From Candidatus Versatilivorator sp. (lineage in GTDB: Bacteria > Acidobacteriota > Terriglobia > Versatilivoradales > Versatilivoraceae): DNA of 64,000 bases. The stretch lies in the NCBI GenBank assembly GCA_965262635.1, contig OZ253547.1, positions 4,156,234 to 4,220,233 on the forward strand, written 5' to 3'. Below are positions 5,747 through 59,665 of this stretch, one piece after another. Position 1 is the stretch's first letter. The number at the start of each line of letters is the position of its first letter. The notes beneath the pieces were generated by a model. It worked only from the letters and a program-made list of their open reading frames with translations, did no database searches and had not been told where the DNA came from. A program made the translations under genes and the position numbers.

Positions 5747-7342
5747 ATGAACCCTCTCATCACAGACAGCGTCTACCTTCGCGTGGGCAACCGGAGGCAG
5801 TTCTTCTTCGACGACCTGTTGCTGGAGCAGACCCAAAACCTGACGCGGCGATTCCATTCGCCCCAACCGGCCGGCGACCGGCCCGTCCTGGGCAAGGACC
5901 GGCCCTGGGAGCATGTGCTCTATTTCACCTGCAATACCTGGAACGTGATCCGGGATCCGAAAGACGGCCTCTTCAAGTGCTGGTACGAGGACTGGCAGAT
6001 CGACGATCTTTCCAGGGCCATCTCCTGGATTCGCCCCTCGGACCGCAAGCTCTGCCTGAATCTCCACCGTTCCTGGCCTTCGCGGGTGCTGTACGCCCAG
6101 TCCCGCGACGGGATCGCCTGGGAAAAACCGGCCTTGGGAATGGCGACCGAAAAGGGCCGGAGCACCAACGTGGTGCTCGGCGGCCGCGAGCCGGTGGGTG
6201 CGGCCCATTGCGCCTACGTGCTGCTGGACACTCTCGAAACCAACCCGTCTCGACGCTATAAGGCGATCTTCGAGAACCGGGCCAGCCAGGAAGCCGACGA
6301 CCAGGGCGGCGGGACCTTCCGCAGCGCATTCTCAAGCGACGGGATCCACTGGAAGGTCCACTCGGAGCCTGTCCGCTACGGCCGGTGCGGTCCGGTCGCA
6401 GGCGACGTGGTGACGGTCTCGATCGACCCCGAATCCGGCATCTATCGCTTGAACGGGCGGCACCCTACCATGTGCTCCAACGTCGTCCAGGACATGCGCA
6501 ACCCCACCGACGGCGGCTGGATTGCGCCCAGCTATCCCCATCGGTTCGGACAAGAGAACCGGCGGCGGATTTTCCGGATGGAGAGCAGCGACATGATCCG
6601 CTGGTCCACCCCGACACCGCTGGTCGTTCCCGAACACGACACCGACAACATCGACGATGAGTTCTATGGCATGGAGCAGTTCCAGATCGGCGACGATTGG
6701 CTGGGACTGCTCAACGTCCTTCACAACACCGACAACACCATGGACGTCCAGTTGACCTATTCGCGCAACGGAAAGGATTTCAAGCGGGTCCGACCGGGAC
6801 AGTCCTGGCTGGCCCCGGGGGCGGAAGGGAGCTGGTATCCCTACCTGTGCACCGTGTGCAGCAAGCCGATCGAGGTGGGGGACGACCTGTACGTGTACCA
6901 CGGAGGGGCCAATGTCCATCACGACTGGTGGATGGTGGGACTCCCCGAAGGGCTGAAGGTGGCCGAGAGCGGCAATCTGGACGGGGTGAACTACGCCCTG
7001 GGTCTGGCCAAAATGAAGCGGGACCGCTTCGTCTCGCTGGCCGCCGGCCCGGCCCGCACCGGGATTCTGGTGACCCGGCCCATCTTTCCAACCGGAGGCA
7101 GCCTGATCGTCAACCTGAAATGCCACCCCGGAGGCCGGCTGCAGGCGGCCATCGCCGACGGACAGGGGAACGTTCTTCCCGGTTTCGAGCGTCGAAACTG
7201 CCGGACCGTCTCAGCCGATGGCGTCTGCTGCCCGCTGACCTGGCGAGGTCAATCCAGGGTTCCCTCGGGGAGATTTCTGAAGCTGCACTTCTTTCTGCAG
7301 AACGCCGAACTGTTCAGTTTCCAGTTCATCCAGGAGACTTGA
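5747..7342 (+). CDS. five-bladed beta-propeller glycoside-hydrolase-like protein (GH43/GH32/GH130-clan-like)
   Basis: ATG at 5747 (MNPLITDSVY...) is downstream of junk N-terminal extension of the track ORF. Motifs NTWNVIRDPKDG and DDEFYGMEQFQIGDD are typical of furanosidase-type propellers. Confidence 0.5.
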   Translation: MNPLITDSVYLRVGNRRQFFFDDLLLEQTQNLTRRFHSPQPAGDRPVLGKDRPWEHVLYFTCNTWNVIRDPKDGLFKCWYEDWQIDDLSRAISWIRPSDRKLCLNLHRSWPSRVLYAQSRDGIAWEKPALGMATEKGRSTNVVLGGREPVGAAHCAYVLLDTLETNPSRRYKAIFENRASQEADDQGGGTFRSAFSSDGIHWKVHSEPVRYGRCGPVAGDVVTVSIDPESGIYRLNGRHPTMCSNVVQDMRNPTDGGWIAPSYPHRFGQENRRRIFRMESSDMIRWSTPTPLVVPEHDTDNIDDEFYGMEQFQIGDDWLGLLNVLHNTDNTMDVQLTYSRNGKDFKRVRPGQSWLAPGAEGSWYPYLCTVCSKPIEVGDDLYVYHGGANVHHDWWMVGLPEGLKVAESGNLDGVNYALGLAKMKRDRFVSLAAGPARTGILVTRPIFPTGGSLIVNLKCHPGGRLQAAIADGQGNVLPGFERRNCRTVSADGVCCPLTWRGQSRVPSGRFLKLHFFLQNAELFSFQFIQET

Positions 7343-19154: not shown

Positions 19155-19630
19155 TCGAGGAAGAAACTGCCGATCGTTTTTTAAGACGAACCACCAATGG
19201 ACACGAATAGGGATGGACCACCTTCAATGACCAACCGCGCCCGAATGCATCTGCGATATCGTGACCTTGATATCACGACGTCATGGGAGGAAGCCCACCC
19301 GGGAGCGCGGGCGTCCCGCCCGCACAACACTGGCAAAACCTCGCCCATCTCCTCGAACCGGGTCGACCGGCAACGGCGCCAGGACTCTGCTTCGGCCGAG
19401 CCCATGCCGTTCCCGCCGACAGGGTAGCCGGGTGTCGCATCGCAGGGAAACTGAGCGGCAACCCAAGGGAGAGGATGCGGGCGGGACGCCCGCGCTCCCG
19501 GGGGGGGGCCGCTTTCGTCACGATTGCCCTTCAAGGGAGAGTCAGCGCAACCGAACTGGCTGGATGGTCGCCTTAAATCCCAATTTGACAATCCCTTAGT
19601 GGCCCTTCGTGGATAACTCTTTTTCTTTTG
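19155..19630. repeat. MITE-like intergenic repeat, family A copy 1 (core 19298-19504 bounded by 27-bp TIR cccgggagcgcgggcgtcccgcccgca)
   Basis: Four copies in the window. The others are at 21960-22420, 57925-58175 and 59040-59665, the last inverted. Each TIR contains a gcgggcg-tcc-cgcccgc mini-hairpin. Confidence 0.75.
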
Positions 19631-21959: not shown

Positions 21960-22420
21960 TTCGAGGAGAAACAGCCGACCGTTCATAAAGACGAACCACG
22001 AATGAACACCAATGGGCGCGAAGACCGATGGACCTCCTTTGGTGCGACGACGTCATGGGATGAAGCCCCCCCGGGAGCGCGGGCGTCCCGCCCGCACAAA
22101 GCCTGGCACAGCCTTGGCCATTTCCTCGACCCGGGTCGACCGGCAACGGCGCCATGGCTCTGCTTCGGCCGGGCCCATGCGGTTCCCGCCGGCAGGGTGA
22201 CCGGCTGCCGCATCGCAGGGAAACCGAGCGGCAGGCGAAGGGAGAGGATGCGGGCGGGACGCCCGCGCTCCCGGGGGGTCCTCCTCCCATCACTCTTGCC
22301 CCTCAAGGGGGCGGATGCCGGATTGCCAGGCCGCGGCCGGTGCCGATCCGGCAGACCCGTCCCGCTTCGTGTCCCTTCGTGGATAACTCTTTTTCCCTTC
22401 GTGTCCTGGGTGGATTCCCT
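21960..22420. repeat. MITE-like repeat, family A copy 2 (core 22068-22277)
   Basis: Same TIRs and internal sequence as copy 1, including the flanking ccttcgtggataactcttttt segment. Confidence 0.75.
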
Positions 22421-36872: not shown

Positions 36873-37183
36873 ACACTTGAGCCAATCTTGCACCTGACCT
36901 GGTAGCGACTTCGAATTTCAATAGGGGTAGAGCGTCGATGAGCAGAGTCCGTAGAAAAGCCTCAAGGTCACCAAACTGCAGTACAACTGAGACACGTTGC
37001 GTGGGGGTAGGGAGGGCTCGACCTCTACCCGAATGCGCTCGCTGCCCACACGAATTCCTGAAGCGGTCTCAAATTAGTCAACGCCTCGGCTGTTGGTCGC
37101 GGCAGATAGTGCCGTGTCAAACAATTTCCCTAGTGATAGCGCCACGCTTCCGGGGTCTGAAATTGTGCCGCTGAGTCTCAACT

Positions 37184-38410
37184 ATGCGCTTTGGCAAAAA
37201 ACAAGGCCCGGCCATCCGTTCCCAACTCTTCAGCCTCAATTTGGCGATCCTGCTATTCGCGCAGGCAGTGGGGGTCACCGGCTGGTTCGCTGTCGTTACG
37301 GCTGGCGGAATCCTTGGCCGTAGCCTGGCGGCAAACCCGGCCCTGGCGACCTTGCCGGTGTCACTGCTCGTCGTGGGCAATGCCGTTTCCACGATCATCG
37401 CTTCGTGGACCATGGCGCACGTGGGCCGCGCCCGTGGCTTTGCGATTGGCGCCACGGTGGGCGCCTTCGGAGCAGCCTGTGCTTTCCTTGCAACCCTGAC
37501 TCACGACTTCGCGCTGCTTTGTGGCGGCTCGATCACGATCGGCTGCGCGGCCGCGTTTTCTCAGCAATACCGCTTTGCCGCCACTGAATGTGTCGGTGCG
37601 GCGGCCGCACCAAAAGCGATCTCAATCGTGCTTTTGGGCTCCATCTTTGGCGCTTTCCTCGGCCCGGGACTGATGTCGTGGGGCGAGGCCTGGGTCGCGG
37701 GCGCACCGTTCGGTGGCTCATTCGCCGCTATTGTGGCGTGCAATTTACTTGGCGCTGCCGCCCTCCTTGCCTTGCGGCCGATGACCCCTTCGGCCGAGGA
37801 AGAAACAACCGGGGGCGCTCGTCCTCTGCGCGTCATAGTTCGCGGCCACTTCTTTATCGCGGCCGTCACGGGGGGCGCGATCGGGTGGGGCGTCATGACT
37901 GTCTTGATGACGGCCGTACCGCTGGCCATGCATATTGTCGACGGGTATTCCCTGGCGGCAACGGTGGCGGTCATCCAGGCCCATGTGCTGGCCATGTACC
38001 TTCCTTCATTGATCAGTGGTGCTCTCATCGGACGCTTCGGCGCCGGGCGGGTGATGATTGGGGGAGTGGCGCTGCTTGGCGCCACCCTGGTTGCGGGCCT
38101 GGCGGGCCGCCACATGCTGCACTACGGCCTGGCCATGGTGGCGCTCGGCGTCGGTTGGAATTTCCTCTATGTTGGAGGAACGACGCTACTGGCCCGAGCC
38201 CATCGTCCAGCCGAACGCTTCCGTGTTCAGGCGCTGAACGATTTCAGCATTATGGGTATCTCGGCCTTTGCCTCCTGGAGTTCGGGGGCAGTCATGGAGC
38301 TGCTTGGCTGGAACGGGGTGCTCTACGCGTCGATTCCCGCCATCCTCGTTGCAGCTATGGTCATTCTCTGGGTACGTCCGGACCCTCCGCCAGCAGCTGA
38401 CCGCGCATGA
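37184..38410 (+). CDS. MFS transporter
   Basis: 408 aa, 12 TM-like segments. Confidence 0.85.
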   Translation: MRFGKKQGPAIRSQLFSLNLAILLFAQAVGVTGWFAVVTAGGILGRSLAANPALATLPVSLLVVGNAVSTIIASWTMAHVGRARGFAIGATVGAFGAACAFLATLTHDFALLCGGSITIGCAAAFSQQYRFAATECVGAAAAPKAISIVLLGSIFGAFLGPGLMSWGEAWVAGAPFGGSFAAIVACNLLGAAALLALRPMTPSAEEETTGGARPLRVIVRGHFFIAAVTGGAIGWGVMTVLMTAVPLAMHIVDGYSLAATVAVIQAHVLAMYLPSLISGALIGRFGAGRVMIGGVALLGATLVAGLAGRHMLHYGLAMVALGVGWNFLYVGGTTLLARAHRPAERFRVQALNDFSIMGISAFASWSSGAVMELLGWNGVLYASIPAILVAAMVILWVRPDPPPAADRA

Positions 38411-38490
38411 GAGCAGGGGCGGCTGTCAACGGTCATCAGAAACCGCGTCAATCTGAACAGATGGTGGACCACAACATCTTGTAAGAATTA

Positions 38491-39845
38491 GGGGACGTTG
38501 TTGAATTACTGGAATAACTGTCTCCGTTTCCTATTCCTGACCGACTGAAACGGCGTAGCAGATGCCTTCCCGAACGCTTCGGTACACTCGCAGGCACTCA
38601 CACCGCGATTCGTCCTCGAAACGCGGCCGAATCGTTGCACCAGCAACTCGCACACGGTATCCTTAATTCTCCGCCTGTTTTTTCCTCCCTCCCTAAGCGT
38701 CGTCGCACGCTTGGTTCTCCAGGTTTTCGATGACAACCACCCCGTCCCGAAAACAGCAGGTGTGCTGTACGGGACGTTTTTGAAGTACCGAAAAAACCCT
38801 ACACAGTTTCTCCCTACACAGTTTCCAAGTTGTCACTACCCAAAGGAGAGCAGCAATGCCTCGCCAGGCACGGCTGGACGCTCCCGGCACCCTCCACCAC
38901 GTCATGCTGCGCGGTATCGAGCGCCGGGCGATTGTGACCGACGACGCAGACCGTCACGAGTTTGTCAGGCGCTTGGGAGCCTCGGCCATGCAGAGCCGAA
39001 CGTCGGTCTATGGCTGGGTCTTGTTGACCAATCATGCCCACCTGCTGCTACGTAGCGGTCCTGATGGGTTACCCTGGTTGATGCGCCGCTTTCTGACCGG
39101 GTATGCCCAAGCCTACAATCGGCGCCACCAGCGTCACGGTCACCTGTTTCAGAATCGCTACAAGTCCATTGTGTGCGAGGAGGACGGCTATTTCATGGAG
39201 TTACTCCGCTACATCCATCTCAATCCTATTCGTGCCAGGCTGGTCAGGACCTTAAGCGAATTGGAGCGTTATCCCTGGAGCGGGCATGGAGTACTGTTGG
39301 GAGAGATAGCGGGGAGCTGGCAAGAACGGGAGTGGGTGCTGAGTTGGTTTGGCAAAACGACCGATAGTGCCATACAGGCCTATCGCGAATTTGTAGCGGA
39401 GGGCGTGGGACAAGAGCGACGGCCTGAGCTGGTCGGAGGCCGGCAGGTCCGATCAGGAGGGAGTTGGTCGGTAGTCCGCGGCCGAAGTCGGCAAAAAGTA
39501 GGCGATGAGCGGATCCTTGGCGGTAAGGTCTTCGTGGCCACGGTACTACGGGAAGCGGAAGAGCGAATACGCCGACAACTGGCGGTGCGAAGAAACCAGT
39601 CTGGGGTGTCCGAGGCAATAGAGCGGGTCTGTCGGCAGGCTGGTGTCAGCGCTCGGGAACTGCAGGCGGGCAGTCGGCGAAGGCCGGTGTCGAAGATTCG
39701 AGCCTTGCTGGCACAACGGCTAGTGGCAGAGTTCGGGCTGTCCCTGGCGGAAGTTGCTCGCCAATTAGGGGTCTCCCTCTCCGCAATTGCCAAGAGTTTA
39801 CAGAATCGCCAGACAGAATAATTCCAGTAATTCAACAACGTCCCC
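38491..39845 (+). mobile_element. IS200/IS605-superfamily-like insertion sequence with 27-bp TIRs (ggggacgttgttgaattactggaat) flanked by TA
   Basis: Left end at 38491, right end ...aattccagtaattcaacaacgtcccc at 39845, and flanks tta|...|tac. Confidence 0.8.
38856..39821 (+). CDS. Y1 HuH transposase (IS200-like Y1_Tnp domain) fused to a DnaA-C-like HTH
   Basis: HuH motif LLTNHAHLLL, catalytic Tyr region YIHLNPIRARLV, and C-terminal ..AEFGLSLAEVARQLGVSLSAIAKS.. Confidence 0.85.
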   Translation: MPRQARLDAPGTLHHVMLRGIERRAIVTDDADRHEFVRRLGASAMQSRTSVYGWVLLTNHAHLLLRSGPDGLPWLMRRFLTGYAQAYNRRHQRHGHLFQNRYKSIVCEEDGYFMELLRYIHLNPIRARLVRTLSELERYPWSGHGVLLGEIAGSWQEREWVLSWFGKTTDSAIQAYREFVAEGVGQERRPELVGGRQVRSGGSWSVVRGRSRQKVGDERILGGKVFVATVLREAEERIRRQLAVRRNQSGVSEAIERVCRQAGVSARELQAGSRRRPVSKIRALLAQRLVAEFGLSLAEVARQLGVSLSAIAKSLQNRQTE

Positions 39846-39864
39846 TACTGACTCCTAGCGGCTG

Positions 39865-40330
39865 GTGCGGGTGGAGGAGTCACTGCCCTACAGCAGGGGC
39901 TGGCGGCGCCGTCCGCTGAAGGATCGTGCGGCGCTGGCGCGGGCCTTTCTGGCGAAGGCGGTGCTGGACGTGCCCACCACCCGGGGGCTGGTCGAGCGGC
40001 TGAGGACGGAGGGTCTGCTGCGTCGGCTGTGCGGCTGGGAGGCGGCAGGGGCGGTGCCGAGCGAGGCGACCTTCTCGCGCGCTTTTGCGGAATTCGCCGC
40101 CAGCGACCTGCCGGGGCGCCTGCATGAGGCGCTGCTCGACAGAACGCTGTAGGGCCACCTGGCGGGCCACGTGTCGAGGGACTCGACCGCCATCCCGGGA
40201 CGAGAATCGCCGGCGCCCAAGCCCGCCCCGACGGCCAAGCCGAAGCGCCGACGAAGTCGGCCGCGCAAGGACGAGCCACGGGCGAAGGAGCCGCGACGCC
40301 TGCAGCGGCAGGCATCGATGACGCTGGAGG
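39865..40330 (+). pseudogene. IS1182/IS5-family transposase internal fragment (in-frame stop at 40150, truncated at both ends)
   Basis: Matches the IS1182-type N-terminal region (..RPLKDRAALARAFLAKAVLDVPTTRGLVERL..LCGW..VPSEATFSRAF..). After the TAG stop it continues with HVSRDSTAIPGRE (the DSTAI DDE-region motif). Confidence 0.5.
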
Positions 40331-40768
40331 GACGTCCTCGCTCCCTTCAAAGCTCAGCCCTGGAAGGGGCCGCCGCCGGAAGTCGCCACTCACAGCTTTG
40401 GCGATCACGGGGGCGAATCACCGGAGCATCAAGCGTTCAAGGAGGCCGTCCGCTTGCATCCAGTCTGGTTTGGGATCCCAGAGCGTCCTGCGTCCGTTGA
40501 ATATCCCTTCGTGACCGGTGACGCCGTCGACGTCCTGTTCACTCAGGGCACTCGAATGTGGGGAGGCGCGGTGAAGTCGGCAGTGTCTCAGGAAGGGGAT
40601 ATTCTCCGAGGCCTGTTTCAGTGCGTGAAGTACCGCGCCCTCCTTCAGGCGGAGCAGGTAGCCGCCGGCAATGCGTGCTTCGTCGATGTCTATCTTGCTT
40701 GTGAGCATGAGTTCCCAGCGAAGCTGCTCGGTGTTGGCCACGTTCTAGCAGCCCGTGGTTAAAGGGCG

Positions 40769-41212
40769 ATGAGGGGATCGACACGATCGATCCTGTGTAC
40801 TACACTCCGGCATGGCCATCAGACGATGCAAGAACCGGGCACGCACGCCGGGGTTGCCGAGATGATCTCGCAGCTGATCGACTTGGCGAAGAGCCTGCGA
40901 GACGCGCAGCGGCACGGCGAAGAACTCGGCCTGAGCGGCGAGGAAACTGCCTTCTACGACGCCCTGGCGGAGAACAGGTCAGCCAGAGAAGCGATGCAGA
41001 GCGATACGCTGCGTCTCTTGGCCCGGAAACTGACCGAAATGGTCAAGTACATGCCCAAGCTTGACTGGACCCATCGCGCGTCGGTACGGGCGAGCCTGCG
41101 GCGGAATGTTCGCCGGTTGCTGGCAAAGTACGGCTACCCTCCGGATCTGGCCGAAGACGCGACGCAGCTCGTCTTGCGACAGGCAGAGTTGTCCACGGAG
41201 AACTCGGAGTAA
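40769..41212 (+). pseudogene. C-terminal fragment of a type I restriction enzyme R subunit (HsdR C-terminal/DUF3387 region)
   Basis: ..EELGLSGEETAFYDALAENRSAREAMQSDTLRLLARKLTEMVKYMPKLDWTHRASVRASLRRNVRRLLAKYGYPPD.. matches the conserved HsdR C-terminus. There is no helicase/nuclease core upstream. Confidence 0.55.
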
Positions 41213-41625
41213 ACCAGGATGGCTTGGCCTCGCCGCTACTGTTTGGTAGCGCCATTCGACAAGCAGCGCGCCAGTTGACGCGGGTCGCCGGCCCGAAACT
41301 CGTGGAAGTACGCCGCACCTTGATCCTGGGCGAGCGAATCCTTCATGTTAACGGGACTTATGGATCATCTTTCCGACTGATGTTTTACCCCTTCACGGAG
41401 GGAAACATTGACCCTGAGCGACCCCAACATCACCTCATGGGCCGGCGTCCGAAATTCCGGCCCGTGAGCACGGCCCAGACCCGCTCAAAGACGCTCCCAG
41501 AACGGGCGTTAGGCGTCTTTAGAACGGGCCGGGGGGCGAGCATTGAACAAGTGCCCGAGGACTCATAGCCGTGATCTACGTGAACCGCCGTGGCGATCGC
41601 AGGCGAGGCAGACGTACGGCTTGAT

Positions 41626-41926
41626 GATGAAAGGGCATCACGTCAGATACCTCCAGCAGTTCGTTCATATTCTTCCCGGTGACTTGGTACTTCTTCCGAC
41701 GGATGGTCGCTGCTATCAGGTGCATCTGCGAGTGGTAGTACCGCCCCGCTGCCAGGAACTTGCCCGCGCTGGGATACCGGCCTACTACTACTATTTCGAT
41801 ATCCCTGGTCGGAACTGGTACGAGCACGCCCACCGAGTGGCACGGCATCCCGCGTCCGCAAGCGCACCCTCCGAGGTGCTGGCCGTCGATCCGGATGCGT
41901 GCGCCGACTTGGACGGAGACGCATAA
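41626..41926 (+). CDS. hypothetical small protein (100 aa), possibly first gene of the nuclease-helicase operon
   Basis: The ORF ends 2 nt before the ATG of the next gene; there is no homology call. Confidence 0.3.
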
Positions 41927-41928
41927 CC

Positions 41929-42726
41929 ATGGTCGCCGCGCTTGCACCGGAGATACGCTACTCGGGGTCGAAGGACTCCGCGCAGTGGCGCGGCCACGTT
42001 GTCGTGGATGAGGACCGCTTCAAGTCCTACGTGGCAGGCCGCGTGAAGGCGCGGATGGAAGACGACGAAGCCCAAGGCCAATTTGCGGCAGAACTGCACG
42101 GCATGGCCACGACGGGGATGGCCACCGAGTTCGTGGAGACTCTCCTTCAAGCAGTTTCGGAGGAAAAGTCGTGGGCTGTCGGAGAGGCCCTGGCAGAGTG
42201 TGTTCTTGCCGACGACGAGACGCGTGAGGTCTGCTGGCCTTGGAATCTCGTACGTGACCGCCGCACGCCAAGGGCCAGTCTGCCGGGGGCGGACCTGGTT
42301 GGCTTCTGCAAGGAGGGCGATGCCGTCCTCTTGCTCTTTGGGGAGGTGAAGACATCCTCCGATGCAAGCACCCCTCCCAACGTGATGAACGGAAGCGGGG
42401 GGATGGCATGGCAGCTCAAGAACGAAGCGACTGACCTCAACATCCAGCACGCATTGCTGAAGTGGCTTCGCGCGCGATGCGCATCTGCCGAGCACCAGGC
42501 GCTCTATCAGGCGGCGGTTCATCGCTATGTCCAGTCGCTTGGGAAGGAGATCCTTCTCGTAGGGATACTTCTTCGCGACACGGAGCCCAATGAACTGGAC
42601 GTGACTGCCCGGGCTAAGGTCCTCGCAAAGAGCCTTGGCAGCCCGACGCGCATCGAAATCACCGCTTGGTATCTGCCTGTTCCTATCAAGGACTGGCCGG
42701 CTTTGCTTCATGGGGGTGCACCATGA
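41929..42726 (+). CDS. PD-(D/E)xK nuclease-like protein (HamA/DUF1837-like candidate)
   Basis: 265 aa. The motif ..PGADLVGFCKEGDAVLLLFGEVKTS.. gives D122...E139-V-K141. An RBS ggaga lies upstream, and the stop overlaps the next gene's start (ATGA). Confidence 0.55.
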   Translation: MVAALAPEIRYSGSKDSAQWRGHVVVDEDRFKSYVAGRVKARMEDDEAQGQFAAELHGMATTGMATEFVETLLQAVSEEKSWAVGEALAECVLADDETREVCWPWNLVRDRRTPRASLPGADLVGFCKEGDAVLLLFGEVKTSSDASTPPNVMNGSGGMAWQLKNEATDLNIQHALLKWLRARCASAEHQALYQAAVHRYVQSLGKEILLVGILLRDTEPNELDVTARAKVLAKSLGSPTRIEITAWYLPVPIKDWPALLHGGAP

Positions 42727-45700
42727 CAGCAGCCACCTGGCTTCGAACGGCAGTTGGCGAGGAGCGCCTTCGCCAGACTTCGACAGAGGCGAGTCGCCGG
42801 AGGCTCACCAATGCTCTGAGTTCACCTTCTCAAGCAACAGACGATCGGGAACTCCAGTTCGTCACGAACGCGCTTGAGTTGCAGCTATTCGATGCCCTGG
42901 ATGACGAGGGTCGTGTGGTTGAGCTCCGCGCTGTTGCTGCGGAGACCTTCCGGATCGCCAGAACACTGGCATGGCCGCAGGAGCCGGTTGCCGCAGCTCA
43001 GTGGCTCGTACGGTTGGGGTGCATCGCGGTGCTCGGTGATCGCTCGGCCGATTTCCGTCGCATTGTCACGGAGTGCGAGCTTCCGGCGCTTGCGCCCGAT
43101 TCGGCCGACTGGGGAGTCCGCGTCTGGTCGTCAGTCTTGGACGTGTGGTTGCGTCTCCTGCGAAAAAAAGGGTGGGGCGATCTCGATGCTGTCCAGGAGC
43201 GAATCGTCGCCATTCGCGAAGCACAGCGAGCTTTCGAACCAGCATTCCTGAAAGAAGCGGAGGCTCGCAAGGATGTGCGACCGGCCTGGGAACTCATGGC
43301 CCAGTACCATCTCGCGAAGGCTGCTGAGATTCTGGGCGCCTATGTCGGCCAGGGCTCAGTCGATGGCCGCTATGACATTCGACAGCAGCTTGAAGCGCAA
43401 TTTGACCGAGCTATTGCCGCGTCGGCTCGTGGGCAACTGGTCGAGCGAGAGATGCTGTCGCGGCTCCTTGCTCGGGCCGCACGCGTGATGGTGGACAACA
43501 GCATCTGGACAGTGACGCGCGCGGTGAACAGCAGGGTGACCCGATTTGTGCAGTCGTTGACAGCTCGCGATCGAAAGCGCCCGATCTTCGAGATGCTACC
43601 GCCTCAGAGACGGACCCTTAGGGAACACGGCCTCCTCGGGTCTGGCCATCGATCAGTCGTAGTGAGCTTGCCGACTTCAAGCGGCAAGACGTTCATCGCC
43701 GAGTTCCGGATCCTCCAGGCGCTAAACCAGTTCGATCAAGAGAACGGGTGGGTTGCCTATCTGGCCCCCACGCGAGCACTCGTGAATCAGCTCACCACGC
43801 ACCTCCGCCGCGATTTCTCCCACCTTGGGACTGTCGTAGAAAAGGTGAGTCCGGCACTGGAGGTGGATGGTCTCGAAGCAGGGATGCTGACCGAGGCCGA
43901 CCGGGCGCAGCAGTTCCGAATCCTCGTGACCACCCCTGAGAAGCTGGACCTAATGTTGCGCGGGGGATGGGAGGACGAGATTGGCCGTCCCCTCACGCTG
44001 GTCGTCGTGGACGAGGCGCACGGCCTGGCCTCCGAGAACCGCGGGCTCAAGCTCGAGCTGCTTCTAGCGACCATCAACCGCGAGTGCCGCTACGCGCAGT
44101 TCCTCTTGTTGACGCCTTTCATCCGCAACGGCGCAGAGATTGCCCGCTGGCTTTCGCCAGACAGCAACAAGAATATCGACATCGGCGTCGATTGGACCCC
44201 GAACGACCGCGTAGTGGCGATCGCCCGGGTGAACCAAGGCAATCGTAGAGGCGAATTCAGCTTGTCTCTGCACACTCGACACACGACGCACAACACCCTC
44301 GACGTCCCGGAACAGATTGGCATCGGCGAGCCGCGTCCTCTCGGCTTGGCCTGGTCTGCAGTGAAGAACTCGCCGGGCAAGATCGCAGCAACAACCGCAC
44401 AAGTTCTTAAGAAGCGTGGCACCGTCATTGTGCTCGCTGACACTCCGTTGGCAACGTGGGGGATCGCCGACGCATTCAAAATCGAAGAGAACAAGCGAAC
44501 GCTAGAGGGTGACGACCTCGGACACGTGCAACGGTTCCTCATCGACGAAATGGGAGGGGACTTTCCGCTGGCCCGCTTGCTCGAATATGGAGTCGGTGTT
44601 CACCACGCGGGAATGTCCGAGGACACGCGCTCTCTCGTGGAGTGGCTGACCGAGAACGATCGCCTGGGGGTTTTGGTCGCAACGACCACCATTGCTCAAG
44701 GCGTGAATTTTCCGGTGTCCGGCGTCGTGTTTGCCAGCCACCAGTACCGGCTCAGAGAGAGGCCATGGCGAAAGGACATGCCTCCCGAGGATTTCTGGAA
44801 CATTGCCGGACGAGCGGGTCGGGTGGATCAGGGAGACCTTGGGGTTATCGCTCTTGCGGCCAAGGATGACGCTAAACAACAAGTGCTTGAGCAGTTCATC
44901 GATGCTTCAGTCAGCGAGCTCAACTCGACGCTCATCGAGTTGGTACAGACAGCGGCGAATGCCGGCTCGCTGCTGCAGTTGGAATCGCTGTCGTATCAGC
45001 CCGGTTGGTCCGCCTTTGTCCAATACCTGGCTCACACGTACCGTCAGATCGGGAATCACGAGCAGTTCGCAGCGCAGGTCGAGCAAGTTCTCCGGGGCAC
45101 ACTTGGCTTCCAGTCGCTGCGCAAGAGCCACAAGGGATGGGCGGACAGTTTGGTGCAAGGCGTGTACGCCTATGCCGAGAGAATCAAGGGGAAGCCGCTA
45201 AGCCTCGTCGATGCAACGGGGTTCTCCTGGGAGTCGGTCAATGCCACGCTGGCAAGGCTCGGCCAGGAGAAACTGCCGAACGACGTATGGTCGCCCGAGT
45301 TGTTCGCCGGCCGCAGAGACGACCTTCGTAGGATGATGGGACTCCTCCTGCAGGTGCCTGAGCTGCAAGATTCGCTCAAAGACGTCACTGGCGGAACGAG
45401 CCCGGATGGAGACAAACTCGCCCGAATCATCTGCGCCTGGGTTCAGGGGCGTCCGCTCATCGAGATGGCCACCGATTACTTCAGCCAACCCGGCGAGGAG
45501 GAGAGTGATGAAGCCGCAACGGGTCCCGTCACTGCAATGACCAAGTGCTGCCAGAGCGTGTTCGGGAGGTTGACACAAACTGCATCGTGGGGCCTCTCCG
45601 CGCTTCAGTCACTCACGCTTGGAAATGCCTTCGATGAGTTGTCTCCCGACGAGCAACGAAGCCTCCGCAACCTGCCGGCGCGCGTGTACTACGGCGTCAA

Positions 45701-45911: not shown

Positions 45912-46226
45912 GACCCGGGAACCGGCCCACACTCGCCTTGGAGTTGCCCCAGTTCCGCGCACAGGCTAAGGCTTTCGCTGCTGCCGGCGTTGTCAGCTCG
46001 TGGTCGTCCCCCGCCGCGCCGGCCGCTGCCGGCTGGCTTGTAACGGCTCGACGACCGAGGACCGCGCATTGATCAGTCTGCGCGTGGCGTTGATCCCGGT
46101 CACTCGTCTCCCTTACGCGAACGACTGCGCGTCCACTTCCACCTCAGCGGTGATGCTGGCATCGTCGGGCCAGGACTGCGTGGGGAACGCGTTCTTGTCC
46201 GGGTTGTCACTGACGGACGAAAAATA

Positions 46227-46486
46227 GGGGACGTTGTTGAATTACTGGAATAACTTTCCCATTTTCTTATTCCTGACTGACCAAAACGGCGAAGCAGATG
46301 CCTTCCCGAGCGCTTCGGCACACTCGCAGGCACTGACACCAAGATTCGTCGTCAAAACGCGTCCGAATCGTTGCACCAAGCACTTTCCCCACGGTTTTCG
46401 CGGATTTTCACTCTGTTTTTTCCTCCCTCTCTAGGCGTCGACAAAATCGCCGGAAAGAGTAATTCCACTAATTCAACAACGTCCCC
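46227..46486 (+). mobile_element. MITE derived from the IS at 38491-39845 (left 215 bp + right 45 bp, no transposase), TA-flanked
   Basis: ggggacgttgttgaattactggaataac...taattccactaattcaacaacgtcccc with flanks ata|...|tat. Confidence 0.8.
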
Positions 46487-46853
46487 TATTGACCCGGAGA
46501 AAAGAGGAACACCACATCTTGCGGACGGCCGCGCTCGAGTAGGCCGAGCTCGGCACCGGACACCCCACGCATCGGGGATGCTCGCTGATCCTCAAGCCAC
46601 CGTATCAAACTGCACGGGCAATACCTTGCAATTTCAAATACTTAGATGCCGGTGGCGCTGCCCTTCGGACTCCTCCTTGCCACAAACCCAGCTTCATGCT
46701 CAGGACACGACTGTGGCATGCTGGCACTCCCAGCGCTAAGCTATCTACACACAGGGGAACACCATGAACTGACGGTGCGCGCCTCCAAAGCAGCGTAAGC
46801 ATCCGGCGAAAGCCGCAGGGTGTGTCGGTCTGGAGCCAGGACCGGGCATGCCG

Positions 46854-47851: not shown

Positions 47852-47878
47852 CTGGACGTACCGCTCAGGCTCAAAATA

Positions 47879-48137
47879 GGGGACGTTGTTGAATTACTGG
47901 AATAACTTTCCCAGTTTCTTATTCCTGACTGACTAATACGGCGAAGCAGATGCCTTCCCGTGCGCTTCGGCACACTCGCAGGCACTGACACCGCGATTCG
48001 TCCTCAAAACGTGTCCGAATCGTTGCACCAAGCAGTTCCCCCACGGCATCCTGGATTTTCACTCTGTTTTTTCCTCCCTCTCTAGGCGTCGACAGAATCG
48101 CCAGACAGAGTAATTCCACTAATTCAACAACGTCCCC
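47879..48137 (+). mobile_element. second MITE copy derived from the same IS, TA-flanked
   Basis: ~95% identical to 46227-46486, with flanks ata|...|tat. Confidence 0.8.
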
Positions 48138-48651
48138 TATTGATGTTCGTTGCCCGCAGGTCCTTCATGAGCAAGAACAGGTGATAGGGATCCGTGGGGC
48201 TCGGCTCGAACTCCAAGGCTTCGTACCAGCCGCGCGCCTCGTCGTCCTTGGCATGGACGAGAAGCGCCCGAATACCGGCGATGTCGGCGGCGGCGGCGGT
48301 TCTGAGCAGTGCGTCCTTGACGAGCGCCTTGCCCAGGCCTCGTGCTTGCCAGGTCAGGTCGACCGCGAGACGGGCGAGGAGCATCACGGGGATCGGGTGC
48401 CGGGCCAGCCCCTTGCCGCCTCGGAGAGGTGCGTCGGCATGTTCGACTGCTCCCGCCGCAAGGCTGTAGTAGGCGAGCACCGTCAATCCCCGGCAGGCGA
48501 CATAGGTCCGGGCACTGTCGGCCTTCTGGTTCGCCAGCGCGAAACGCTTCAGAAAACGATCGAGTGGCTCTTTCCCGCACTCGAAGGAATCGACATCGTG
48601 CGTTGCGTCGAGCTTCTCGACTGGAGACAACCCCTCCTGTCCCGGCGTCAC
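48124..48651 (-). CDS. GNAT-family acetyltransferase toxin (TacT/KacT-like)
   Basis: GNAT core (..VLAYYSLAAGAV..RLAVDLTWQARGLGKALVKDAL..). The GTG start overlaps the antitoxin stop (GTGA). Confidence 0.7.
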   Translation of the reverse strand: MTPGQEGLSPVEKLDATHDVDSFECGKEPLDRFLKRFALANQKADSARTYVACRGLTVLAYYSLAAGAVEHADAPLRGGKGLARHPIPVMLLARLAVDLTWQARGLGKALVKDALLRTAAAADIAGIRALLVHAKDDEARGWYEALEFEPSPTDPYHLFLLMKDLRATNINRGRC

Positions 48652-48924
48652 TCCAGCACGCTCTTCTCCGCAAGCAATCGAGTCAAGCGGGGCTTGTCGG
48701 CGACCGGACGGTCGAGGATAGCCTGGAAGGCCTGCCACTGGCGATCGTCGAGCCGGAAAATCCGCCGGTCGACCAGGGCGTCCTCAGCGGCGTTGATCCC
48801 TGCCTCGAGCAGAAACTCCGTGACGTTCTTGTGTGACGAGGCCGCAGCCCGCTGAAGCAACGCCTTCACGTTTGAGGTCGTCCGAACCTCAATGCGTTCC
48901 GACTTGTTTTCGGCGATGGCCATG
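48648..48924 (-). CDS. DUF1778-family antitoxin (TacA-like)
   Basis: MAIAENKSERIEVRTTSNVKALLQRAAASSHKNVTEFLLEAGINAAEDAL... is the typical RHH/DUF1778 sequence. Confidence 0.7.
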
Positions 48925-49516
48925 AATGTTCCTCCGATTGGATCCACAGACTTTCTGCCATACGGATAGTGTACGGACAAGAACGCATCGACAGGCACCC
49001 CACAGTGCCTCACATCCTCCTGACAGTCCACGGCACGGTGCCGACGATGTGGGCCCTCATCGGCCAGGCAGGCATAGGGCTCGCAGGCTAGGTTGGCGGA
49101 GATCAGCCGCAACCGAGGCGGGGCTCGTCGCCGCGCAATGTCTCGACGCTCTTGACCGCCAGGCTGCCGCCCACAGCACGGCCATCTCGCCGGTGCCCCG
49201 GCCCACTCATCTGGTCGTCACGCTCCCAGACAACGGCTGGAACCAGGCGATCCGTCGAGCGCGGAGATCGCAAAAAAAGTTGCGCGGAAAGTTTGCGCAC
49301 AACTCGTCTTCTCTATCCTTCTGATTTCAGATGGGTTACGCCTGCGATCGATCGGCCGCCGACTGAAAGTCGCCGCGCGCCGTGCTCGCCGAGGCCCGTA
49401 TTCATTGATTTTTTTTGGCACAGGGGGTTGCCGATCCCCTCTGTTCGCGCACAACACGCACAGCTACGGTGGTGGGAGTTCGTTTGCACAGTCAGCAGGG
49501 TGACGATGCCGCAACG

Positions 49517-57924: not shown

Positions 57925-58175
57925 CCGGTCTAATGTGTGGATGATGCCCCCCCGGGAGCGCGGGCGTCCCGCCCGCACAATAGCCCGGCACGACCTCGCC
58001 CATCTCCGCCACTTGGATCGACCGGCAACGGCGCCGTGAGTCTCCTCGGGCCTTGCCATTGCGGTTCACGCCGAAAGGTCGGCTGCCTGCCTGCAAAATC
58101 GTGCCGACGCTCCGCAACCTCCATCAAGGAATAAGGATGCGGGCGGGACGCCCGCGCTCCCGGGGGGATCCCTCT
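57925..58175. repeat. MITE-like family A copy 3 (core 57951-58167)
   Basis: Same 27-bp TIRs, nested between two family B repeats. Confidence 0.75.
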
Positions 58176-59039: not shown

Positions 59040-59665
59040 GGGAAAAGAGTTATCCACGAAGGGCCACGAAGGGGTTGGAGGAGAGTCAAGAGGGATGCGC
59101 CAAGGGTTGGGAAGAGAGAAAGGATTTCCAGAAGGGGGCCGAAGTATCTGTTTCTGAAACGCCCCTGTTTCGTCCTATAGGATCCGTGCCGACGAGTGGG
59201 ACGGGGGCGGGGTTCAGTGAAAAGAGGGGGCACGGCATGCGGGCAAACGGGAGCTTCCCAAAGGAGGCAGGTCGGCTTTCAGAGAAGTCGCCCGCCGGAG
59301 ACCCCCGCCGCACCATCGGGACGACACCCCCCGGGAGCGCGGGCGTCCCGCCCGCATCCTCTCCCTTTGCCTGCCGCTCAGTTTCCCCGCGATTCGGCAG
59401 CCGGCCACCCTGCCGGCGGGAACCGCATGGGCCCGGCCGAAGCAGAGCCCTGGCGCCGTTGCCGGTCGATCCGGGTCGAGGAGATGGGCGAGGCTGTGCC
59501 AGGATTTGTGCGGGCGGGACGCCCGCACTCCCGGGGGGCTTCATCCCATGACATCGTGACACCAAGGGCACAAATTCGCAGAAGCATTCGCGCACCGCTG
59601 GTCATTGAAGGAGGTCCATCGGTCTTCGGGCCCATGGGAGCAACCGGGCAACCACAAGGGATGCC
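59040..59665. repeat. MITE-like family A copy 4, inverted orientation (core 59330-59538)
   Basis: Reverse complement of copies 1-2 including flank gagttatccacgaagggccac. Confidence 0.75.

Follow-up and report, generated by a model that had tools for sequence, protein, structure and literature searches.

A TIRtron-type element with a Y1 HUH transposase gene, its miniature copies and their setting in a variable defence island of Candidatus Versatilivorator sp.

The window analysed in this study is a stretch of 64,000 nt of contig OZ253547.1 (GCA_965262635.1) of Candidatus Versatilivorator sp., and all positions were counted from its first letter. It contains a long unit resembling an insertion sequence (IS), located at 38491-39845 (1355 bp, or about 1367 bp with its terminal hexamers), which is bounded by terminal inverted repeats (TIRs) and carries one gene for a Y1 HUH enzyme, and two miniature copies of the same unit. 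The 25-mer GGGGACGTTGTTGAATTACTGGAAT, the core of these TIRs, was found with at most three mismatches at six sites of the window (38491 plus, 39821 minus, 46227 plus, 46462 minus, 47879 plus and 48113 minus), against none expected by chance (0 in 100 shuffles). Related loci and strains compared with the window are designated by L-numbers (e.g. L144, L115).

The left TIR core of the long copy, GGGGACGTTGTTGAATTACTGGAATAA, was located by repeat search at 38491-38517 (plus strand), and the right one at 39819-39845 (minus strand), where it overlaps the stop codon of the gene. Both are identical over the 25 positions of the 25-mer, agree at 26 of 27 positions over 27 bp, and extend to 36 nt at 89% identity if the flanking TA is included, bearing out the description in the initial annotation of long TIRs, which classical IS200/IS605 elements lack. 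A short hairpin, GGAATA/TATTCC, immediately follows the left TIR, and the left non-coding region continues to 38855 (38518-38855, plus strand), its first ~185 nt (to about 38702) being kept in the miniature copies. The retained left 215 bp had been named promoter/leader; in this left arm a promoter scan found no sigma-70-like site and an Rfam scan matched no family, and the name was not upheld. Outside the TIR cores lie two terminal hexamers, on the left GAATTA (38485-38490, plus strand), a variant of RAAATA, and on the right TACTGA (39846-39851, plus strand), a point variant of TATTGA; at the same right junction L146 reads TATTGA.

The gene (38856-39821, plus strand) encodes a protein of 321 aa with a Y1 HUH core, a linker and a helical C-terminal domain, putatively helix-turn-helix (HTH). 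The protein matched Pfam Y1_Tnp at 30.3 bits (cut-off 23), and Bac_DnaA_C (18.8 bits) and HTH_23 (19.9 bits) under their cut-offs; the earlier view, of an IS-like unit with a single gene whose Y1 HUH product ends in a putative HTH, is consistent with this. PF08299 or PF13384 are precomputed for several clusters of homologues, and the structural model of the window protein has a helical C-terminal domain. The nearest NCBIfam model was REP_Tyr_transpos, the tyrosine transposase associated with repetitive extragenic palindromes (REPs) and here called RAYT, at 63.5 bits, under the 80-bit cut-off. In an alignment of 28 homologues, N59-H60-A61-H62, which includes the HUH motif H60-A61-H62, and the catalytic-type tyrosine Y119 (in RYIHLNP) were invariant or nearly so. 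The AlphaFold model had a mean pLDDT of 78.5 and a disordered linker at residues 194-223. Its best fold match was 4ER8, the Escherichia coli TnpA-REP with a REP hairpin (E 6.8e-6, target TM 0.73), followed by the TnpA of IS200, ISDra2 and IS608; PDB sequence and profile searches with the protein did not reach RAYT, which was reached by the fold search alone.

More than 7,900 protein clusters matched the 321-aa protein at E≤1e-5, many of them with ~320 aa and a full-length identity of 56-61%, including clusters from metagenome-assembled genomes (MAGs) labelled Thermodesulfobacteriota, NC10 and 'Deltaproteobacteria'; their annotations are 'transposase' or 'REP element-mobilizing transposase RayT'. 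Of the clusters of the protein at 90% identity, one has 361 member sequences. TIRs beginning GGGGACGTT, the start of the left TIR core of the window, also bracket four homologues from other phyla (57-65% identity; one of them from an NC10 MAG); in each, one TIR lies some 50-80 nt ahead of the start codon and the other at the stop codon. By tblastn, genomes were seen to hold several copies of the gene each, some intact and others truncated or frameshifted, with at least five copies or fragments in OZ240232.1. The dN/dS ratio among intact copies of different genomes was 0.19-0.31, and the transposase gene is under purifying selection. Each TIR-bounded unit larger than 400 bp with a recognisable gene holds only the Y1 gene or its remnants, and no DDE transposase was seen inside the TIR-bounded elements larger than 400 bp.

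Both miniature copies lie in the same orientation as the long copy. Miniature copy 1 (46221-46492, plus strand) consists of a core of 260 bp (46227-46486) with the hexamers AAAATA and TATTGA; its right junction is constant across strains and its left neighbour varies. Miniature copy 2 (47873-48143, plus strand) has a core of 259 bp (47879-48137) and the same hexamers. As initially annotated, both are non-autonomous deletion derivatives: they align to about positions 1-212 and about 1310-1355 of the long element, and so keep ~212 bp from the left end and 46 bp from the right. The same breakpoints, about 212 and 1310, recur in the window, L042, L047, L085, L096 and L098, and the ~260-bp derivative is scattered over many unrelated loci and genera; the common breakpoints point to one deletion derivative that multiplied as a family. 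Folding of the two miniature copies gave z-scores of -4.2 and -5.8, the end-to-end stem being dominant. Position 19 of the TIR is C in the left repeat (ATTACTGG) and G in the right one (ATTAGTGG) of most short copies (e.g. 46462-46486 and 48113-48137), a fixed mismatch in the end-to-end stem which is absent from the long copy of the window.

This architecture corresponds to a known class. Di Nocera et al. 2013 (PMC3733652) described RAYT-like genes with TIRs in place of REPs, naming the proteins TIRYT and the units TIRtrons; many of the TIRs have a GGGGWSAS motif, some belong to dispersed repeat families, and the Acidobacteria form a distinct TIRYT group. Quentin et al. 2018 (PMC6006769) placed 20 of 26 TIRYTs in subclass 2.1 of TnpA-Y1, with C-termini similar to Bac_DnaA_C, HTH_23 or HTH_28 in subgroup 2.1.2. 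The supposition that such a structure had not been described must thus be abandoned. The unit of the window shares with the TIRtrons of subgroup 2.1.2 a Y1 HUH protein that resembles RAYT, has ~320 aa and ends in a C-terminus putatively of the Bac_DnaA_C/HTH_23 type, TIRs beginning GGGG and the occurrence of TIRs in dispersed repeat families. It differs in that its gene is present in several copies, that deletion derivatives form a clear series and that a ~260-bp family has proliferated, and in its left non-coding arm of 365 nt against about 60-80 nt in the four distant homologues. Its TIR begins GGGGACGT and agrees with the published motif, GGGG[AT][CG]A[CG], at six of eight positions, namely the first six bases only (GGGGAC). 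Neither paper treats target sites, duplications or deletion derivatives, and the words 'target site' and 'duplication' are nowhere mentioned in PMC3733652; new with respect to both are the definition of the ends, the apparent lack of duplication, the co-oriented arrays and the swapping of cassettes, all presented below.

The initial annotation had noted TA on both sides of all three copies of the window, which was confirmed in the sequence, and had taken it as a sign of target duplication or preference. The similarity of the flanks exceeds TA, although TA bounds all three copies: the long copy is flanked by GAATTA and TACTGA, and both short copies by AAAATA on the left and TATTGA on the right. 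The consensus of 32 left ends was (G)GRAAAAATA|GGGG and that of 29 right ends CCCC|TATTGA(C/T). The conserved flank is therefore asymmetric and longer than TA, and the inverted repeat continues through AATA/TATT only.

Loci of related strains, fetched via neighbouring genes, showed the element joined to the same backbone at different points. On the side of the TacT-like toxin gene, the right end lies 71 nt past the natural stop codon in L115 (...CAAAGT|TCAATA|GGGG), 32 nt past it in L144 (...TTTCCCA|GGGGTCAATA|GGGG, where L115 continues TGCCACGG) and 8 nt inside the gene in L116 and L118 (...GAGCGAACA|TCAATA|GGGG). On the side of the major facilitator superfamily (MFS) transporter gene, the left end of the window copy follows the gene by 80 nt (...GTAAGAATTA|GGGG) and that of L144 by 14 nt (...GAGCAGGG|AAAATA|GGGG), and all other strains read GAGCAGGG|GCGGCT at the joint of L144. 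Three different offsets of the right end, each joined through TCAATA, were found downstream of a DUF1501 gene (L096, L003 and L029). The outer flanks in the species group of the window comprise 17 different sequences on the left and 20 on the right, and nearly all keep RAAATA or TATTGA. Since the hexamers are joined to one backbone at varied offsets and this backbone lacks them, they belong to the element. Judged from these junctions, TA is internal to the element, and the mobile unit would exceed each TIR core by 6 nt or more; the asymmetric hexamers move with the element, so that a TA target duplication or preference is no longer tenable and the TIRs as annotated are not the true transposition boundaries.

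No direct repeat was visible outside the hexamers, and no abutted right and left ends were found. The palindrome AAATATTGA was considered as an insertion site and rejected, its single occurrence in 1.05 Mb being the chance level. Tandem duplications spanning an element end and its outer flank were observed at L095:1322-1378, L025:25-77, L065:~880-935, L082:~6150-6190, L132:2470-2545 and L134:2490-2515, with units of 16-32 nt at left ends and of 38 nt (L132) and 14 nt (L134) at right ends; they may have arisen by replication slippage at hairpin-prone ends or be footprints of end processing.

To determine the distribution of the repeat, the 25-mer was scanned for in a species-representative genome collection. 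It was present without mismatch in more than 110 stretches (a lower bound) from at least 12 acidobacterial MAGs. Among the matches listed, all carriers were Acidobacteriota, labelled Candidatus Versatilivorator spp., Versatilivoraceae, 'Terriglobia bacterium', Vicinamibacterales and 'Acidobacteria bacterium'; in two Vicinamibacterales-labelled MAGs the flanks were 99% identical to the window, which places the host in the Acidobacteriota and not in the Planctomycetes or Verrucomicrobia, named in the initial annotation as groups where transposases of this kind are common. With up to four mismatches, 273 copies of the 25-mer terminate several modules with unrelated interiors and differing outer flanks. 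Among these modules is a 116-bp inverted doublet ending in the 25-mer, with 37 copies flanked by GTGCAGCGCT on one side and by TATTCRCG or TACTCTCC on the other. The association with TA, which the initial annotation had proposed to tabulate, held for the element family itself (27 of 32 left and 26 of 29 right ends) but not over all module types, where TA precedes the 25-mer in 132 of 272 cases. Because unrelated modules share the 25-mer, the '27-bp TIR' is better described as a widely shared REP-like core than as the private end of one IS. Versatilivorator genomes carry the 25-mer most often in the form of this doublet (e.g. L059:2161-2276 and L079:4553-4668, and many of L008-L110); it holds a third, degenerate copy as a direct repeat, is often preceded by a conserved 31-nt sequence, GAGCCTTTTGCAAAATTCGTCGTGCAGCGCT, and no gene is linked to it.

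The three copies of the window are co-oriented within a segment of ~10 kb that extends from the MFS transporter gene (37184-38410) to a pair formed by TacA (DUF1778) and a GNAT toxin of the TacT-like type (48124-49112, minus strand). The segment 38410-48124 is hypervariable among strains (loci L112-L130 and L140-L149). Cassettes between the elements include a pair of genes for proteins of 117 and 175 aa, another of 354 and 110 aa, HEPN/AbiV, Mrr/McrB-like and OLD-family genes, a type I restriction helicase, PIN and a fragment of a phage integrase; L144 has the whole island shrunk to one miniature copy. At each element examined, one flank was constant and the other variable. Analysis of variable sites showed that L116_a is chimeric, its left half matching an 'Mrr-linked' variant and its right half the one linked to TacT, and that L115 and L118_b have their left halves alone in common. 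Such chimeric copies indicate that homologous recombination between copies explains much of the cassette exchange. One-ended transposition, for which the variable flanks had been a candidate proof, was set aside, as the same recombination can explain the pattern. Between the window and L001 (window 36901-42821 being the region compared) the coding sequence and 600 nt of right flank are 100% identical and the left flank is 81% identical; this alignment indicates a recent recombinational replacement, with a probable boundary about CTTGTAAGAATTA next to the left end. Co-orientation was strict for all copies in the island and for 10 of 10 neighbouring pairs elsewhere, and fits either unequal crossing-over or strand-specific insertion.

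Within the same region, the GNAT toxin gene (48124-48738, minus strand) has its stop codon supplied by the right TIR of miniature copy 2: the natural C-terminus is …RAMLSE* (L115, L144), versus …RATNINRGRC* in the window, read into the TIR. The junction between toxin gene and miniature copy varies, with a 7-nt deletion in L112, L119 and the window relative to L116 and a 6-nt insertion in L114. In ERZ25071132 ctg820203 the MFS gene is present twice, 4.5 kb apart.

Taken together, we consider it likely that the 1355-bp unit is an intact TIRtron, with one TIRYT gene in inverted repeats of about 25-36 nt, and that the ~260-bp units are its non-autonomous family. The latter derives from one ancient internal deletion and was presumably mobilised in trans, and the element, which is well preserved, is apparently an active member of its class. 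As a working model, the TIR would be bound by the HTH domain, being read either as duplex DNA or as the stem formed by both ends of the single-stranded element; the HUH/Tyr centre would nick just outside the paired AATA/TATT at both ends, and excision and re-insertion would proceed by single-strand cleavage and joining, with no duplication, as in IS200/IS605 and REP/RAYT systems. The dispersed copies would then act as portable homology, between which the defence-gene cassettes are swapped, deleted and duplicated.

Several points weigh against this interpretation. To our knowledge, neither transposition intermediates nor biochemistry are on record for TIRYTs in general. Folding revealed neither self-folding of the TIR nor a conserved subterminal hairpin, and the reading of the TIR by a Y1 enzyme is conjecture. 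The proposed lack of target duplication was inferred from comparisons of junctions and not seen directly: the search for an empty site, recommended at the outset, yielded no clean one, as the all-against-all comparison of the flanks of 111 loci gave no site with both flanks collinear, the orthologous loci reached via the TacA, 175-aa ORF (open reading frame), DUF1501 and MFS genes all carry the element or differ on one side, and scanning metagenomes for the 3' end of TacT gave no match. Element orientation showed no significant bias with respect to local GC skew in four complete chromosomes, and transposition need not account for all of the junction diversity, part of which could be due to illegitimate or homologous recombination. 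Finally, the HTH assignment is weak, being based on sub-threshold Pfam matches and the family-level description in PMC6006769.

Other systems account for part of these features. REPs, the bacterial interspersed mosaic elements (BIMEs) built from them with their RAYT, and REPINs, offer the closest fold and curated model, a short repeat inverted around a gene, and abundant short inverted doublets able to form long hairpins. In a REPtron, GTAG-tagged palindromes flank a gene that is typically single-copy. The 25-mer could accordingly be a dispersed repeat maintained by the host, with the gene as a domesticated, single-copy maintenance enzyme and no selfish IS, a view favoured by its spread over stretches and MAGs of several named taxa, by its presence at the ends of unrelated short modules such as the 37 doublets, and by RAYT being the nearest NCBIfam model and solved structure. 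We regard this as quite improbable, as the gene is multi-copy with many truncated and frameshifted copies, the copies lie in a strain-variable island and not at a conserved locus, the NCBIfam score is under the cut-off, and the TIR is neither self-palindromic nor tagged with GTAG. The protein also differs from RAYT in an additional, putative HTH. The classical IS200/IS605 members (IS608, ISDra2) share the Y1 HUH core, asymmetric ends with a conserved short sequence abutting each, and the absence of a visible duplication. Following their logic, an element GGGG...TATTGA would insert 3' of AAATA, the left hexamer being target DNA, much as the flanks of IS608 are asymmetric (TTAC|LE...RE-TCAA|); the co-orientation described above would also suit it. 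This has only a small probability in our estimation: the AAAATA of L144 is joined where the backbone of the other strains is GCGGCT, and so was no pre-existing target, and a true inverted repeat runs through AATA/TATT at both ends. Classical members lack TIRs, have subterminal hairpins on one strand and a TnpA of ~130-155 aa without HTH, whereas here a TIR of 25-36 nt is present and folding gave only the end-to-end stem, with no subterminal hairpins found.

The TIRs and the TA at both ends are also the classic signature of IS630/Tc1-mariner elements and their miniature derivatives (MITEs), and the high frequency of TA at the ends of the family would be explained if a DDE transposase encoded elsewhere acted on the TIRs and duplicated TA, the Y1 gene being a passenger. 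This is most improbable. Those elements have a DDE transposase and a true TA duplication, and neither was found here: no DDE gene was seen in the TIR-bounded elements larger than 400 bp, Y1 genes of distant homologues and of other phyla are likewise accompanied by TIRs of the GGGGACGTT type (PMC3733652), the hexamers that surround TA move together with the element, and in modules with the same TIR one side has AGCGCT, AACA or GTAA in place of TA. The copies might lastly be immobile relics whose junction diversity is wholly due to homologous and illegitimate recombination in a flexible island. The chimeric copies, the one conserved and one variable flank at every site examined, and the identity of the window and L001 rightwards from the left end with an 81% left flank would all be expected of such relics; nevertheless, the ORF is intact and under purifying selection, the TIRs of the window copy are perfect, one deletion derivative is found over many unrelated loci and genera, and the end sequences are kept precisely at every new joint, which makes immobility rather improbable as the whole explanation.

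Other repeats of the window were also recorded. A second, unrelated miniature family of ~200 bp, with perfect 24-bp TIRs (GGGAGCGCGGGCGTCCCGCCCGCA), is present at 19301-19499, 22073-22272, 57954-58161 and 59333-59532, its TIR giving 8 matches in the window versus 0 expected; it occurs in Versatilivorator loci as well, and some of its copies, in L016 and L054, are split by GGGGACG-type elements. A repeated element with DUF772 (IS5-type N-terminal domain) lies at 39863-40350 (ORF 39865-40152 and beyond), 17 nt to the right of the long element, with copies at 80-90% identity in L079, L039 and L077.

Going further, TIRYT elements could form an active IS family of their own, with a Y1 HUH enzyme working on long inverted repeats, and the co-oriented miniature copies, not being passive homology alone, could bound a defence-cassette system driven by the transposase; we find this unlikely at present. 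In such a system the enzyme may cut at the base of the two-end stem in single-stranded DNA, with no duplication, and toxin-antitoxin, AbiV, Mrr/McrB, OLD and type I restriction genes could be assembled and reshuffled in acidobacterial islands by an HUH nuclease in an integron-like manner.

The element class is already known; what this study usefully adds is a definition of the ends and the role of the copies, which mark cassette boundaries in a defence island. Proteins of the TIRYT type are abundant, and we know of no demonstration so far of the DNA on which they act or of the way in which a Y1 enzyme specific for single strands handles inverted repeats. The locus and its strain variants constitute natural end-mapping data (RAAATA-GGGG...CCCC-TATTGA, no duplication), supply a proliferated non-autonomous family suited to trans-mobilisation tests, and offer a concrete case of such repeats structuring a variable defence island, so that the mechanistic question becomes directly testable with defined oligonucleotides.

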